Shown piece after piece: positions 4,501-60,804 of a stretch of DNA of 64,000 bases (position 1 is its first letter; each line of letters starts with the position of its first letter). The notes under the pieces are model-generated. The model was not told where the DNA came from. It searched no databases and was given only the letters and a program-made list of their open reading frames with translations. Made by a program: the position numbers and the translations under genes. The DNA lies in contig OZ024741.1 in NCBI GenBank assembly GCA_964016885.1, forward strand, positions 133,858,001 through 133,922,000, read 5' to 3'. Source of the stretch: Eledone cirrhosa. Taxonomy: Eukaryota.

Positions 4501-4519
4501 CCTATATATATATATATAT

Positions 4520-4665
4520 GCTGGACTCCACCAGAGGGCGCTAGCCCCGGTGTTTGCATAGCTACGGCTTCCTAAATGTTTTACCCTGTAAACATACCGT
4601 GTTTCTTTAGAAATACGAAATTCTATAGATATCTGTTGTACAGCTATGCTTGAAGCTAAATCCTA
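4520..4665 (+). repeat. Fragment of the ~330-nt retrozyme-like family at 59666-60460
   Basis: Shares CCACCAGAGGGCG...CCGGTGTTTGCATAGCTACGGCTTCCTAAA...TTTCTTTAGAAATACGAAATT; flanked by (TA)n on both sides. Confidence 0.75.
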
Positions 4666-4818
4666 TATATATATATATGCATAAATGAAGTATTTCTGTA
4701 GGAAAGGTAACGGAAAAGAGAGTGCTCTATGTAGGCTACAGAGTTTTTTAGTTATGTAATAAACAACATAAGATAATTATTTCATTTACCAGTGGTTTCT
4801 TGAGGACAGATATTTATA

Positions 4819-6339: not shown

Positions 6340-9073
6340 CAAATAAACACACAAAGGAGTTTTTCTACCACAACAAATAGATGACCAAACAGAGGCACAG
6401 TTTACCATAGCTAGAAATAAACTTAGACAGGTAGTAGAACAATATACTTGGAGACAAAACAGACCATAGATTCAACATCTTGGAAGAAAACCTGCAGAAA
6501 GCCTACTTAGCCTCATGCAGCGCATAAGGGATGGTGAGGTAGTGTGTCTACCTTCAGACAAATTCGGTAGGATGTCAATAGACAACATGCCAAACTATAT
6601 CATGGCTATGCAACCCCACTTCATCAACACGAGCGAAATAACACCATAAACACACGAGGAAAGAGAGAAGATACTCAATGCTCACATGATGATGTGGACC
6701 GACATCCTAAAACCAAGTAGACGCACAGCCAATAATTTCCAAGCCTCTGACAATGACACACCATCCTTGTATGGGCTCCGCATAGACCATAAAACAACTA
6801 ACGACCCTATGACAGGACCACCAACAAGACCTGTATGCGCAGCCAATATTGCCAGTAACTACAGGATCTCCTGCTTCCTCTCTATGATTATACGCCCCAT
6901 AATTAAAATGTCCCCAGATATATGTGAGGACCTTCTCAGTAGAATCAATGAATTAATGCAACAATAACGAAAACTTAACAAATTGCATACTAGGCAGAAT
7001 AGATGTAATATCCCTGTACCCATCCATTGATATTGATTTTGCTGTGGGAAAATGTGTGGAAATAATCAATGGGGGTGAGGTAGAGTTCTGCGACCTTGAC
7101 ACAGATGAACTGGGCCTCCTACTTAGACTTACATATGACAATGAACACTTAAATAATTATGACCTTAGCAGTTTCTGCCCCTGTAGGCCAATAAGAGGTA
7201 GACCCCCAACCCACCATAACTTCAATGTCTAAAAAGACTCCAATAGGAAGATGCAATGGATGGACCAAAGCCATAAGGACACCCCAAAACAACAATCAGG
7301 TAAGAAAAATGGTCGCACATGCAGTAGGGGCTAGCATTAAAACTACCCTAAAGGCCACATATTTAAACTACACCCAGAATGAGGAAGTAGCTATTGGCGT
7401 CAGCATAGCTGGTGATGTTGCCAACCTATTGGGAAAGGAGATTCAGATAACTCCTAGGAAAGAACACCATAGCCCTCGTCATGTACTCTCGTTACGTAGA
7501 CGATATCAATATAGTAATAAGAACACCCCCACAAGAGAGTACCAATAAACCTGAACTAGGAAATAACACACTGGAGAGCATCCAGCAGATAGCTAATTCC
7601 ATACACCAGAGCATAACAGTAACTATTGACTACCCTTCCAAACACCCCAACAATAAACTACCAGTATTAGACACGGAACTCTGGTAAAACACTATAAACG
7701 AGAGGGCCCAAATTCTCCACTCACATTATGCTAAACCCATGGCCTCCAAACACCTTACACTAAATAAACTAAGCAATGTCCAATAGTGCTAAGTTTAATA
7801 TTCTGATCGCAGACTTGGTAAGAGGGATGAAGAACGTGTCCCACATGTGCGATTCAACTGAAATGGAAAGGCACATCCAACACTTCATCAATCGCATGTA
7901 GTTCTCTGGTTACAACCAAAGAGACAAAATCAGAGTGTACAAAGGAGCCATAGAGAAATATAAGACCCTCATAGAAATGGACACGAAAGGGATTTTCCCA
8001 TTCTACAGGAGCAAATCATGGAATAGCATAGATAGAACTAAACATAAGGTAGGGAAAGCCATTTCATGGTACGACAACCAGAGATACTAGAGTGTCATGT
8101 TCGTGGATGGAACCCCTGGAGGGAAATTAGCTACCCAATTTAGAGATTAAAGTGGTAGAAAAGCCAGGAACTACAATAAAATCCCTGATCAGCAAAACAT
8201 ACCCCTTTAAGAAAACCCACTGTACGAATAAGAAATGTATTATATGTAGAATAAATCCTCAAATAAATTGTAAAACTAGAAATGTAAGCAATAGCATAAG
8301 ATGTACAGAGGGTACTTGCAGAAACATGACACGATATACATAGGTGAGACAGCTCGAAGCATAGGAGAGGGAATAGACCAACACTGGGGGGAACTAAAAG
8401 GACGAAAAGACGGTTCGCTACTATATGAACACGCCAGACAAAGACATGGTGGTAATATAGACAACATGGAAATTAAAATAATATCTAAGCATAGAAATGA
8501 CTCAACAAGTTGACAAATCAGAGAAGCAAATGAAATAGAACTTAAAAAACCAAAGTTAAACAGAAAGAACGAATGGAATAGCAACAACCATACACAAACA
8601 CATAATACTGACCTAAGATGAATATAAATAAATAAATATACACAGATACAATAATAACAACCACATATAAACACAGACTAGTGAACAAAGATAGAATACA
8701 CACATAGACTCAGACACAAACACAAACACACACCAAACAGAAAACACACATGCAATCGCATGCGCAAACAGAGACAGAGACAAGAATAAATAAATAAATA
8801 AAATAAAAATGGTGTAGATATTACAATACAACTGGAGAAAACATAATAGTACCACTGATGATGTCACAAGTGTGTGATGAAATAACTTTAATAGACTATA
8901 TATGTTTATATCTGTATTTTTAACCGTTGGTCAATCAATGAGAAACACTGATTGCCAGATAAATTAACTATGGAGATATAAAAGATACAGAAGCGAAAAC
9001 CAACCCAAACCAATCAGTGAGCGTGTTCTATTATTTCTGGCAATATTATAACAATATGACCCTCCTCAAATAT

Positions 9074-11169: not shown

Positions 11170-12090
11170 TCGTTTTTAAATTTGTTTTGCAAGATTTCTT
11201 ATCTGAAAACGTGTGTTGCAACAGATATTGTTATACTTTGGGAGGGTCATGCTGCCAATAAAAACACACGCACTGTTGATTTTCACTGCAATTTATTATG
11301 AATTTTCGTTTGGTTGGTTCAATAAGCGGATGGTTGATTATATATTGTCAAAGCTCTTTCGTCACACATTGTGTGACTTCCTCAGTGACAGGGTTTTTAA
11401 TTTGTGTCTCTCCTTTGTTCTGTCCTACATCTTATTTTTGTATGTTGTGTGTTGTGTACTTGCTTTGCGCATGCGTTACATCCAGGTGTGTGTGTGTTTA
11501 TCTATCTATTTATGTGTTTATTTACTAGTTGTTTGTTTGTTCAATCTGTGTGTGCTTCATTTGTTTTATTGGTTTGGTTTTTGTGTGTGTTTTTATGTCT
11601 TCATTTTGTCCTTAATTACTAGTTGTGATGCTGCTATTCCACTTTTCTGTTTAATTATGGCTGGAGTTCGTTTATGTTTGTCGCCTCTGTAATTTGTCTG
11701 GGCATTGCATCTTTTCTGTGTGTGGATATAATTTTTATCTCTATGTTCTCTGTGTCCCTATGTTCTATTTTGGCATGCTGGTGGAGTACTGATGAGTTTT
11801 TCCCATCCTGGAGTTCTCGCCAGTGTTCACTTATCCTTTCTCTTATGCTACGGGCTGTTTCACCTATGTATGTTGTGTTCTTATTCCTACACTGTTTCTC
11901 AGTACATCTTATGCTATATACTACGTTTCTAGTTTTGCAGTTAGTTTGCAGGCTTAGCTTGCAGACTCTGCATTTCCTATCAGTGCATGGGGTTCTTTGA
12001 AATGGATATGTTTTACTAATTAGGGTTTTTATGGGAATACGTGGTCTTCCAACTATCTTAATATTCAATTTACTAAGTCTGCAATCAGTA
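11170..12090 (-). mobile_element. 5'-truncated Penelope-like element: GIY-YIG domain plus 3' pLTR
   Basis: ORF 11655-12143: CTDRKCRVC, NVVYSIRC, TYIGETARSIRERISEH, R..TE..IN; homologous to 8150-9078. Confidence 0.9.
11346..11390 (-). ncRNA. Type I hammerhead ribozyme in PLE pLTR
   Basis: TGTCA-CTGAGGA-A-GTCACA/TGTGAC-GAA-AGAGCT-T-TGACA: 5-bp stem I, 6-7-bp stem II, minimal stem III. Confidence 0.8.
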
Positions 12091-13898: not shown

Positions 13899-15358
13899 GT
13901 CGGGTCACTGCTGAGTGCTATTGGTAACATGTAACCCAGTACAACCTGTCGCATGGTCGGGTCATCGGCGACTAAACCGGCAACCCCACCAAGTTTACTT
14001 GGTGAGACGGGTGATTTTGGACACCCTGCAGGACAAAAAACAAAACCTGACAAAGGGCGGAAGAACTCATAAGAGTCAACGGCCATCCAAAAATGTGTAA
14101 ATATGTATATATACACATGTACATATGTATGTATATGTATATGTGTATATGCATGGGTGCGTGTGTATGTATATGCGCGGGGACATAGAAAAGGTCGGCC
14201 TGGACACCCGATCGCGCGGTTAAACCACTGGGAGTGAAGAACCCCTAGCCTTTGTTAGGGCATTTTTCTATGTTCGGGTCGTCGGTGACTAAACCGGCAA
14301 CCCCACCAAGTTTACTTGGTGAGGAGGGTGATTTTGGACACCCTGCAGGACAAAAAACAAAACCTGACAAAGGGCAGAAGAACTCATAAGAGTCGACGGC
14401 CATCCAAAAGTGTGTAAATATGTATATATACACATGTACATATGTATGTATATGTATATGTGTATATGCATGGGTGCGTGTGTATGTATATGCGCGGGGA
14501 CATAGAAAAGGTCGGCCTGGACACCCGATCGCGCGGTTAAACCACTGGGAGTGAAGAACCCCTAGCCTTTGTTAGGGCATTTTTCTATGTTCGGGTCGTC
14601 GGTGACTAAACCGGCAACCCCACCAAGTTTACTTGGTGAGACGGGTGATTTTGGACACCCTGCAGGACAAAAAACAAAACCTGACAAAGGGCGGAAGAAC
14701 TCATAAGAGTCAACGGCCATCCAAAAATGTGTAAATATGTATATATACACATGTACATATGTATGTATATGTATATGTGTATATGCATGGGTGCGTGTGT
14801 ATGTATATGCGCGGGGACATAGAAAAGGTCGGCCTGGACACCCGATCGCGCGGTTAAACCACTGGGAGTGAAGAACCCCTAGCCTTTGTTAGGGCATTTT
14901 TCTATGTTCGGGTCGTCGGTGACTAAACCGGCAACCCCACCAAGTTTACTTGGTGAGGAGGGTGATTTTGGACACCCTGCAGGACAAAAAACAAAACCTG
15001 ACAAAGGGCAGAAGAACTCATAAGAGTCGACGGCCATCCAAAAGTGTGTAAATATGTATATACAGATGTACATATGTATGTATATGCGCGGGGATATAGA
15101 AATAGTCGAGTTGTACACCCGATCGCGCTTTTAAACCACTGGGAGTGAAGGACTCCTAGCCTTTGTCAGGGCATTTTTCTAGAAGGCAACTCAGGAAACT
15201 GGGATAACTCCAATATAAAACCTGCGGCTCAGTAGTTACCGATGATGTTGATCTTTTCTTCTTTTGGGGTTATAGCTACTATCGCTCAGAGAGTGGGATT
15301 GATTGGCTCAGTGCACAGTCTTTCCTCACTTTAAAAAATATCTTCACGCACAGGCATT
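13899..15358 (+). mobile_element. (TATG)n-associated ORF-less element with an internal 317-bp tandem expansion (4 units)
   Basis: The 5' end is homologous to 27396-27590; CGGGTC recurs at 13958, 14275, 14592 and 14909; the last unit continues into sequence homologous to 27640-27792. Confidence 0.8.
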
Positions 15359-39091: not shown

Positions 39092-39219
39092 GGGTGTTAT
39101 GTCCGGAGCAAATTTTATCAAACTGACTAATACATAGTTACAATTTCAAGGAAATCGGTCTGACGTAACGCCTCAAAAAGACCCTAAAAAGCTTTAAAAA
39201 CGCAGTTTTTCACCTAATG

Positions 39220-39650
39220 CAAGCCCTAGGAGATCAAAAAGTTGAATTTTATGTGCATAACACTCCCTGAAACATAAGTAATACACATGTAAAGTTTGAA
39301 AAAAATCGGTTGGGTACTTCTCGAGTTTTAGGGATTCAAATTCACAGACACACACACACTGACAGACATCCTCAGGAAAGCGACGTAATTCAGACAGGCA
39401 GGCATACAGACAGATATTATAAGGGCGCGACGTTATATGTATGTATCTATCTAAAAAGAGAAAGAATAAGAATTACAGAGAGAGTTCGCCAAATCGCCTA
39501 ATGCGGTCCCTAGGGACATGAAAACGGTCCCTGAAACATAAGTATTACATGTGTAAAGTTTGAAAACAGTCGGTTGAGTGGTTCTCGAGTTTTAGGGATT
39601 CGTACTCACATACACGCAGACAGACATCCTCAGTTATATATATATATATA
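39220..39650 (+). mobile_element. Two non-autonomous Helitron-like (Lep1/HINE-type) fragments
   Basis: CCCTGAAACATAAGTA..TGTAAAGTTTGAAAA..TCGGTTG..TTCTCGAG, a CA/GACA microsatellite and ACAGACATCCTCAG occur twice; the same sequence is at 59477-59600. Confidence 0.55.
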
Positions 39651-59302: not shown

Positions 59303-59588
59303 ATACTAGCAGTGGTACCCGGCGTTGCACGGGATAAGGTATTTTGGAACGCGGGCTACCAACATACCTAATTGTGGAAAAACTGCATGTGTGGACAATA
59401 TGTAAAGAAAATAAACCGAATACTCTGATGGCTGGATAATCTTTAAGATTTTCCTCGATGAAGCAGGAAAAATGCGAGCCCTAGGAGATCAAAAAGTTAA
59501 ATTTTATGTGCATAACACTCCCTGAAACATAAGTAATACACATGTAAAGTTTGAAAAAAGTCGGTTGGGTACTTCTCGAGTTTTAGGG

Positions 59589-59664
<76 letters not shown>
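59303..59664 (+). mobile_element. Non-autonomous Helitron-like element
   Basis: Starts ATACTAGCAGTGGTACCCGGCGTTGCACGGG (subterminal hairpin); shares its body with 39220-39350; (CA)n. Confidence 0.55.
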
Positions 59665-59667
<3 letters not shown>

Positions 59668-60460
59668 AGGTGATTAATCTCATTTGCATATGAAGCTGCA
59701 TAAGTTGGCTCAACTTATAATAGGAAAGAAATAAGGTTTCGCTTTAGCATAGCTTTATACAATATGAATACAAATTTCGTATTTCTAAAGAAATACGGTT
59801 TTAGGAAGCCGTAGCTATGCAAACACCGGGGGGCTAACGCCCTCTGGTGGTGTCCAGCAGAAGCAAGGGGGACAACCGTCTATGCATTTCAAGCTTGGCT
59901 GGCCTCCGTCAGGACGGTCCCTCCCACCGCTTGCTACTGCTGGACTTGAAAACAGTCGAGAATATATAGTTTTCTCATCTGTGTAAATGAGGAAGACCAG
60001 CCAAGCCTGAAATGCATAGACGGTTGTCCCCCTTGCTTCTGCTGGACACCACCAGAGAGCATTAGCCCCCCCCCCCCCCCCCGGTGTTTGCATAGCTACA
60101 GCTTCCTAAAACCGTATTTCTTTAGAAATACGAAATTTGTATTCATATTGTATAAAGCTATGCTTAAAGCGAAACCTTATTTCTTTTCTATTATAAGTTG
60201 AGCCAACTTATGCAGCTTCATATGCAAATGAGCTTAATCACCTCATTTACACAGACGAGAAAACTATATATTCTCGACTGTTTTCAAGTCCAGCAGTAGC
60301 AAGCGGTGGGAGGGACCGTCCTGACGAAGGCCAGCCAAGCCTGAAATGCATAGACGATTGTCCCCCTTGCTTCTGCTGGACACGACCAGAGGGCGTTAGC
60401 ACCCGGTGTTTGCATAGCTACGGCTTCCTAAAACCGTATTTCTTTAGAAATACGAAATTT
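59665..60460. mobile_element. Retrozyme-like array: one inverted ~325-bp monomer plus 1.4 direct monomers (period 334)
   Basis: CCAGCCAAGCCTGAAATGCATAGACG at 59997 and 60331; 59665-59992 is a circularly permuted reverse complement; ends in (TA)n. Confidence 0.88.
60315..60358 (+). ncRNA. Type I hammerhead ribozyme with extended stem I (mirror 59875-59918 on -)
   Basis: CGTC-CTGACGA-A-GGC/GCC-T-GAA-ATGCAT-A-GACG; stem I extends via GGGA/TCCC, GCAAG/CTTGC and GTCCAGCAG/CTGCTGGAC. Confidence 0.85.
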
Positions 60461-60480
60461 ATATATATATATATATATAT

Positions 60481-60804
60481 ATACAAATGAATATATGATA
60501 GGGATAAACACTAATACAAGTATATAAGTGTTTGTATTGCATATGACCCAGTTAGCTAGATTGAAAAATACTAATTAAAATAATACAGTTTGCCTGTCTC
60601 GATTTAAAATAATAAATCAATAAAAACAAACCTATATTGGCAATAGCCGTGATACCTGGACAAATTAAAATTTCAAATCTTAAATTTGTTTCGCAACAAT
60701 TAAGTGAAATTTCCTATTCCTGTGCTCTTCTAACTTGGTCATTTGCAATACAAACACTTATATACTTGTATTAGTGTTTATCCCTGTCATATATTCATTT
60801 GTAT
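60481..60804. repeat. Inverted repeat with 75-bp arms and a ~175-bp spacer, (TA)n-flanked
   Basis: 60481-60555 versus 60730-60804 with few mismatches. Confidence 0.75.

Follow-up and report, generated by a model that had tools for sequence, protein, structure and literature searches.

A two-armed copy of an abundant 322-nt hammerhead repeat family with Penelope-type insertion anatomy in Eledone cirrhosa

The mechanism by which hammerhead repeats move in animals has been proposed, and not shown, in the retrozyme and Penelope literature cited here. Li, Clavereau and Pollet (2026, bioRxiv 10.64898/2026.07.22.740005) proposed that non-LTR retrozymes are mobilised by Penelope-like elements (PLEs), and reported a monomer share that ranges from 0 to 1 depending on the family. 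Hallmarks of PLEs are 5' truncation, partial tandems, an inverted copy adjacent to the 5' end and a tail of 30-40 bp, often at one end, and a CX2-5CxxC linker is characteristic of Neptune and Nematis (PMC8557442). The PLE protein of the anole cleaves and extends both DNA strands, reverse transcription begins at two internal RNA sites delimiting the tail, and in vitro uncut RNA was preferred, with unprocessed RNA being the dominant substrate (PMC11167929). Hammerheads with a one-pair stem III and a palindromic tetraloop cleave poorly as monomers and well as dimers in axolotl and newt (PMC7229834), and 8 of 9 predicted Xenopus dimers failed to cleave (bioRxiv 10.64898/2026.07.22.740005). In the giant squid, 235 hammerhead-1 matches were counted (PMC6962438). 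Our literature search found no paper on cephalopod retrozymes, while supplements may list such families, and a term search of the main text of PMC13282606 returned neither "ribozyme" nor "retrozyme".

Here, we describe a hammerhead-containing locus at positions 59665-60457 of a stretch of 64,000 nucleotides from E. cirrhosa (assembly GCA_964016885.1, contig OZ024741.1, positions 133,858,001 to 133,922,000 of the forward strand), which is called the window and to which plain coordinates refer. The locus consists of two arms that lie head to head, a 328-nt copy on the minus strand and a 470-nt partial tandem on the plus strand (Table 1; unit positions are numbered such that c1 is window position 60190). 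The plus arm had originally been predicted to be a head-to-tail 1.4-mer, and it indeed has a period of 322 nt (60080 versus 60402) and spans about 1.4 periods; its first pass measures 334 nt from site to site because of a poly-C expansion. The inverted copy is 96-98% complementary to the plus copy and is bounded at both ends by ATGAGG/CCTCAT, and its length is one period plus 6 nt. The inversion junction lies inside the hammerhead core, as had been predicted, and the plus arm begins at the U4 position of that core. The passes at this locus differ by 6 of 217, 2 of 110 and 7 of 131 aligned letters, the divergence of the locus from the column majority is 2.9%, and no credible ORF was found in the unit.

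With respect to its ends, the plus arm is a normal arm of the family that terminates at a fixed site, termed site A, and the approximately 40 nt between site A and the second fixed site, site B, are a Penelope-type "tail". The left arm overruns the usual site-B end by 59 nt and abuts the (CA)37 tract of an interspersed repeat; the short 3' terminus of that repeat, present in sister copies, is missing at this locus. This non-canonical end fits either an arm once about 590 nt long that was later shortened by a deletion or an unusual priming site, and therefore the unit length of the left arm is best read as a coincidence. Because the end is non-canonical, an inverted duplication at the DNA level or gene conversion between the arms is possible for this copy.

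Several other repeats were observed in the window. The interspersed repeat at 59305-59665 is of high copy number, ends in (CA)n and is also present at 39216-39338 and in stretches L004, L013 and L164; similar elements interrupt copies of the 322-nt family in L018 and L200. It is reminiscent of non-autonomous Helitron-like (HINE/DINE-1) elements. An element with 75-nt inverted ends (96%) at 60481-60804, found also in L063, L081 and L088, is unrelated to the hammerhead unit, and a 317-bp tandem repeat at 13953-15086 (3.6 copies, 97% alike) lacks CUGANGA on both strands. The dispersed relative that had been predicted at 4520-4665 is real and is 75-77% identical; it terminates near site B and is flanked by (TA)n on both sides. 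The subfamily to which it belongs carries an additional insert of about 19 nt after c243 and was also seen in L117, L140, L177, L179, L246 and L283.

Table 1. Features of the two-armed locus, its flanks and the dispersed relative in the window
Feature	Position	Strand	Remarks
Inverted arm, 328 nt	59665-59992	-	c52 round to c57; non-canonical outer end
Plus arm, about 1.4 periods	59988-60457	+	c133 round to c268; ends at fixed site A in (TA)n
Head-to-head junction	59988-59992		5-nt overlap TGAGG/CCTCA, inside the CUGANGA core of the plus arm
Complete type I hammerhead (predicted)	60288-60381	+	Core CUGACGA 60321-60327, GAAA 60343-60346
Half hammerhead (middle copy)	59988-60047	+	Lacks C3 and the 5' strand of stem I
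Inverted-arm hammerhead, damaged core	59852-59945	-	CUGACGG (A9>G); top pair of stem II is G-U
Poly-C expansion of plus arm	60066-60082	+	Within first pass
Hairpin	60113-60132	+	Followed by the inter-site stretch
Hairpin and inter-site stretch	60113-60189	+	Site A about 60135-60148, site B about 60184-60190
Left flank, (CA)37	59592-59665		End of unrelated interspersed repeat 59305-59665
Right flank, (TA)n	60458-60484		Usual target of the 322-nt family
Dispersed relative	4519-4666	+	3' piece with one arm, from a variant subfamily that has an extra short insert; lacks the hammerhead

The complete hammerhead on the plus strand has the sequence features of type I, namely a CUGANGA core, GAAA, UH, stems I-III and an open stem I, and the predicted CUGACGA/GAAA core was found in place. 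Stem II is AGGC/GCCU, the UA is located at 60351-60352 and the cut is predicted after A60352. Stem III is a single A-U pair capped by the palindrome UGCA (A-UGCA-U-A). In the MFE fold of 60280-60395 stem I is interrupted and has about 26 pairs (z -2.2), in agreement with the predicted stem of about 25 bp with internal loops, and the whole 322-nt unit folds at z -5.0. The ribozyme had been called intact; this holds in that core and stems are complete, but 60356 G>A introduces a C-A mismatch into stem I, and a rare loop-2 change is present as well. The Rfam hammerhead models matched neither this stretch nor a sister copy at E<=10, and otherwise Rfam yielded only matches driven by microsatellites or chance. 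Because Rfam gave no match, the identification is based on motif and fold; the short palindromic stem III together with the long stem I may explain the miss.

The locus contains a single complete hammerhead on the same strand, not two or more consecutive ones. In the half hammerhead in the middle, GAAAUGCAUA and the 3' strand of stem I are still present, as is the site of the cut predicted after 60018. In a cofold, the 5' half of the complete ribozyme paired with this upstream cleavage site via the palindrome (-51.5 kcal/mol), which would make a double-hammerhead cut at 60018 feasible; for the reciprocal cut at 60352 the partner half is absent. Efficient cutting is predicted only for a dimer formed through the palindromic stem III, in which case the locus would cut at 60018 and would not efficiently release a monomer unaided. 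Since only one complete same-strand ribozyme is present, the locus is a poor candidate source of a 325-335-nt circle.

The locus is one, partly decayed, member of a large family. In the genome (G000, 3.0 Gb), a first look gave 3,158 candidates. A 23-mer was matched exactly at 1,454 places and a core pattern at 1,600; reversed-pattern controls gave 0 matches, versus 209 and 1,600 forward/reverse matches. The family comprises at least 1,454-1,600 exact motif copies. We analysed 235 distinct loci in four samples, with 21 stretches dropped as a repeated place or segmental duplicate. Sample S1 contains the 51 best BLAST matches, among them the target locus, and is biased to long copies; S2 contains 22 loci chosen by core pattern; S3 contains 82 loci that cover the first 100 of the 1,454 23-mer matches and is the least biased; and S4 contains 80 new loci chosen by core pattern. 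The median divergence from the column majority was 3.4% (155 loci). Contigs from three runs of one study, the kind of which is not on record, contained many family variants. At G000:C1:143.35-143.80 Mb (L122-L128), seven matches of one family copy are spaced 58-106 kb apart, which probably represents a segmental tandem duplication.

In its sequence the family corresponds to a non-LTR retrozyme, as it is non-coding, within 150-450 bp, equipped with a type I hammerhead and devoid of an LTR/PBS/PPT layout. Two or more consecutive complete hammerheads do occur in the family: the sampled stretches contained 7 tandem pairs of intact cores, and further pairs and an array of about 11 units were found among 20 loci chosen for tandem motifs. 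In 141 of 183 passes the hammerhead was intact, with the full set of 11 core letters, both stems I and II and the palindromic stem III. Changes at the level of subfamilies sit at N7, at position 10.1, in loop 2 and in an internal loop, and the 11 core letters are spared; in 7 loci, probably of one lineage, a pair of stem II is A-U instead of G-C, and a subfamily of 29 loci has U-U at the base of stem II. The avoidance of the core and the G-C to A-U swap hint at selection on the ribozyme in source lineages, a hint that is weak because S2 and S4 were chosen by core patterns.

In S3, 114 of 133 outer 3' ends were located at site A (c268-292) or site B (c307-c9), two arcs that make up 15.5% of the unit; end calls beside (TA)n are blurred by several letters, and the two sites are 40 nt apart. 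A dinucleotide tract was present at most 20 nt beyond the end for 101 of 114 A/B segment ends, versus 7 of 31 others. The 5' ends, in turn, were scattered over the whole unit and beyond one round. The original prediction had looked to a permutation of start points among genomic copies, with shared fixed ends as in a SINE or MITE as the opposite outcome. Free permutation was not what the survey gave, and the opposite outcome came about by half: the 3' ends are fixed and the 5' ends are variously truncated, in the manner of Penelope insertions and not of a SINE or MITE.

Head-to-head, two-armed loci accounted for 51 of 82 loci in S3, 42 of 80 in S4 and 131 of 235 overall. The inversion is thus the usual insertion form of the family and no peculiarity of this copy. 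Where both arms could be fully classed, they ended at different sites, A and B, in 33 of 37 (S3), 19 of 22 (S4) and 68 of 79 two-armed loci overall, whereas about half would be expected (p 1.1e-8 against independence, first 57 loci); the remaining 11 of 79 were AA or BB. The median arm was about 285 nt long, and the longest measured 744 nt in the four samples and 874 nt in one chosen later; 42 of 114 arms in S3 and 30 of 89 in S4 were longer than one period. Lengths of the two arms were not significantly correlated (rho 0.22, p 0.13). Non-canonical outer ends were found for 74 arms across the 235 loci, and 5 of these arms span 314-333 nt, with 3, 5, 0 and 3 in the neighbouring 20-nt bins. Arms of unit length were thus not enriched, and the inverted one-unit copy, true of the target locus, is not above chance family-wide. 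Taken as a whole, the insertions combine fixed 3' ends and an optional tail with 5' truncation, partial tandems and an inverted 5'-adjacent copy, and they mostly occupy microsatellite targets of the Neptune/Naiad type. The family is a new, abundant and moderately old non-autonomous hammerhead repeat with Penelope-type insertion anatomy, of the non-LTR retrozyme kind.

Subfamily haplotypes were used to compare the arms. At 12 subfamily-diagnostic sites, the arms of the same locus agreed in 877 of 981 comparisons and successive rounds in 383 of 430, against a background of 91.8% at other sites and 52.5% between different loci. A minority was discordant, with 14 of 129 arm pairs differing at two or more diagnostic sites. 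At the target locus, rare letters at c272, c276, c299 and c308 are common to both arms and one at c146 is common to all three passes, and its marker set is unique among the 235 sampled loci. The agreement within insertions fits an origin from one RNA or one source locus, and gene conversion between inverted arms could add to it.

Coding PLEs that might supply an enzyme are present in the same genome. GIY-YIG candidates numbered 10,596, of which 150 were scored. The long frames carry a reverse transcriptase (RT), two of three scanned also carry GIY-YIG, and four of five long-frame proteins have the CX2-5CxxC linker. Three coding elements (L103, L105 and L096) are each two-armed with one tailed and one untailed end, both in (TA)n, a layout identical to that of the hammerhead family. 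The coding family L094/L103 has a minimal type I hammerhead, CUGAAGA...GAAA-GUAC-UU, whose GUAC loop is palindromic, as is the loop of the 322-nt unit. Hammerhead-like motifs with altered cores are carried by two abundant coding families of Neptune type, represented by the L061-L090 3' regions, L091, L092, L101 and L105; in these motifs UUGAUAA or UUGAAAA precedes stem II and is followed by GAAA-CCGG-UA; the alterations are common to all copies seen, and the motifs are possibly variant or inactivated ribozymes in recently spread elements. L091 (G000:C1:145,868,000-145,877,000, minus strand), in which a 938-aa open frame with RT and GIY-YIG stands between two pseudo-LTRs, is a near-complete PLE. 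In the window, decayed fragments of a Penelope-like RT and GIY-YIG with stops in the frames lie at 6530-7181 and 11637-12002 (tblastn E 1e-4 to 6e-6).

We regard it as likely that the locus is a two-armed copy of the 322-nt hammerhead family that was written by a borrowed Penelope-like RT/endonuclease priming from both ends of a microsatellite cut, and, as judged from sequence, the family appears to work like a non-LTR retrozyme mobilised by a Neptune-type element. The first step would be a nick in each strand of a (TA)n or (CA)n tract, made by a Neptune-type protein. The element RNA would then be reverse-transcribed from internal positions with the two DNA ends as primers, site A serving one end and site B the other, a split as expected of a dimeric enzyme. 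The template RNA would be continuous across the cleavage site, and both cDNAs would stop at variable lengths and be joined head to head. At the target locus, the plus arm ends at site A. The left arm would lack its site-B end either from the start or by later loss, with a deletion at the (CA)37 tract as the most likely cause.

The form of the template was addressed with several analyses. Of 93 arms extending as far as the cleavage site, 92 continue across it, so that a cut linear monomer was not the template, and the stops at the cleavage site that it would give were not in excess (1 seen, 4.2 expected). At the unit boundary, taken as c1 or c164, no indel hot spot was found (5 of 126 and 9 of 212 alignments). 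In the discovery set, 5' ends at c270-284 had been in excess, as for a stop after one round on a circle (11 versus 2.5 expected); with the test fixed beforehand, 80 new loci gave 3 versus 3.0 expected, and the one-round stop was rejected. In the replication set, 5' ends at c310-c3 were not in excess either (5 versus 4.6 expected). A sense-strand excess of A-to-G changes, as for an edited RNA stage, was not found (A>G 140 versus T>C 196 in one count, 221 versus 306 in another), although subfamily structure influences these counts. For the family, a circular template is plausible: a religated RNA circle on the one hand, and an uncut multimeric transcript or a precise template jump on the other hand, have about equal chances. 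Since the family is older and its arms are short, genomic sequence by itself does not tell a circular template from a linear one, and the target locus is not the best substrate.

The alternative that survives best is a linear sub-case of the reading with a borrowed Penelope-like enzyme, in which uncut multimeric transcripts from tandem source loci were copied and the hammerhead was a passenger. We hold this to be a serious contender, albeit at somewhat below an even chance. Arms seldom exceed two periods, and cleavage by the hammerhead is dispensable for the anole PLE in vitro, where unprocessed RNA dominates (PMC11167929). Possible sources also exist, in the form of 70 same-strand cleavage-site pairs genome-wide and the array of about 11 units at G000:C2:83,920,630-83,923,935 (L303:1431-4301, L323:1-935), which belongs to a diverged subfamily, has many intact cores, ends at site A and is the best candidate source of multimeric RNA or circles; the idea that no long tandem source exists was dropped after it had been found. 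However, chaining of the 70 pairs gave no exact triple, and the array has a haplotype that differs from that of the target locus and contains internal duplications that point to local duplication of DNA. Furthermore, arms of more than one period arise from several haplotypes, although repeated 5' truncation by itself would presumably have eroded such lengths over generations. The passenger role also agrees less well with subfamily changes that spare the 11 core positions and with the G-C to A-U change of the stem II pair in 7 loci, a point weakened by the choice of two samples by core patterns and by the probable single lineage of the 7.

In its strong form, the original prediction would be that a 322-nt circular RNA is expressed, that the genomic copies are permuted monomers from one round of reverse transcription with arbitrary starts, and that the target locus is a source of the circle. 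Circles have been shown for retrozymes of coral, mussel and axolotl (PMC7229834), and the crossing of the cleavage site, the many arms beyond one period and the smooth unit boundary are in line with this proposal. The fixed 3' ends, the lack of enrichment of unit-length arms, the failed replication of the one-round stop and the single, stem I-mismatched complete hammerhead of the locus argue against it, and we consider it improbable. The retrozyme reading as such stands in so far as the unit is a non-coding hammerhead repeat spread by retrotransposition, with copies that cross the unit boundary and the cleavage site; the argument from permuted full monomers does not.

Still less probable is the view that an autonomous PLE has the unit as its 3' end (pseudo-LTR) and that the copies are 5'-truncated pieces of this element. 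It draws on the homology of Xenopus retrozymes to PLE pseudo-LTRs (pLTRs; bioRxiv 10.64898/2026.07.22.740005) and on the insertion layout, which the family shares with the coding families of this genome. However, the unit carries no ORF with RT and GIY-YIG, arms of more than one period continue backwards into the unit again and never into an ORF, the 104 single-armed copies have no common 5' flank beyond two pairs, and none of the 256 family stretches (L249 was checked) continues into an RT/EN frame. Homology to the sampled coding families was likewise absent: at 46 GIY-YIG loci nothing beyond weak AT-rich similarity was detected. The 3' UTR of one Neptune-type family resembled the unit over 27-31 AT-rich nucleotides (E 0.04-0.46), and this parent candidate was judged to be chance. 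Finally, an ordinary MITE, SINE or satellite that was rearranged at the DNA level and bears a hammerhead-like motif by chance would suit the silence of Rfam, the inverted structure and the atypical left end of the target copy, but deserves hardly any credence, given that core, stems and palindromic stem III are kept in most copies, 5' ends are not fixed, terminal inverted repeats of fixed length are absent, and arm lengths vary freely while the outer ends pair as A and B.

Within the preferred reading, a Penelope-like enzyme priming from both ends of a cut, a more specific version is conceivable, which we put forward tentatively and consider rather unlikely: a dimeric Penelope-type enzyme on one ribozyme-made circle, with its subunits obligately priming at two sites 40 nt apart and both copying round with strand displacement. 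If this were true, every two-armed copy would be the fossil of one circular RNA molecule, the copies would be direct genomic evidence for the proposed retrozyme life cycle, and the presence of a PLE tail at one end only would be explained. Irrespective of this version, the counted footprint ties a non-coding hammerhead unit to Penelope-type priming: two fixed sites are used, one by each arm, insertions carry a single haplotype, and the cleavage site is read through. The family also provides a defined RNA with two priming sites, and candidate enzymes are present in its own genome.

Compared with known systems, the 322-nt family resembles the metazoan non-LTR retrozymes in its non-coding unit of 150-450 bp, type I hammerhead, head-to-tail arrangement and autonomous PLEs alongside; a stem III of one pair with a palindromic tetraloop is shared with the axolotl HHR_Amex1, and the U-U at the base of stem II in one subfamily (29 loci) with HHR_Amex2 (PMC7229834). 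In contrast to those retrozymes as described there, it consists mostly of dispersed 5'-truncated arms of less than two periods and not of long arrays, and it is two-armed with paired fixed ends. The evidence of Li et al. is co-occurrence and pLTR homology, whereas here it is the insertion anatomy, and pLTR homology was not found at the 46 GIY-YIG loci; with one complete hammerhead instead of two consecutive ones, the target locus would not be "active" in their sense (bioRxiv 10.64898/2026.07.22.740005). Among the non-coding PLE dependants, Chlamys elements such as MRC1 likewise have pLTRs and multicopy head-to-tail insertions, but they are green algal, mostly lack canonical hammerheads in the account of PMC8557442 and resemble their autonomous partner at the 3' end. 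With canonical EN+ Neptune-type PLEs, the family shares 5' truncation, partial tandems, the inverted 5'-adjacent copy, the tail at one end, microsatellite targets, two internal RT starts and a hammerhead near the 3' end, while its unit is closed and has no ORF (PMC8557442, PMC11167929). For the anole enzyme in vitro, start sites did not differ between the strands (PMC11167929), whereas the genomic copies described here pair A with B in 68 of 79 cases.
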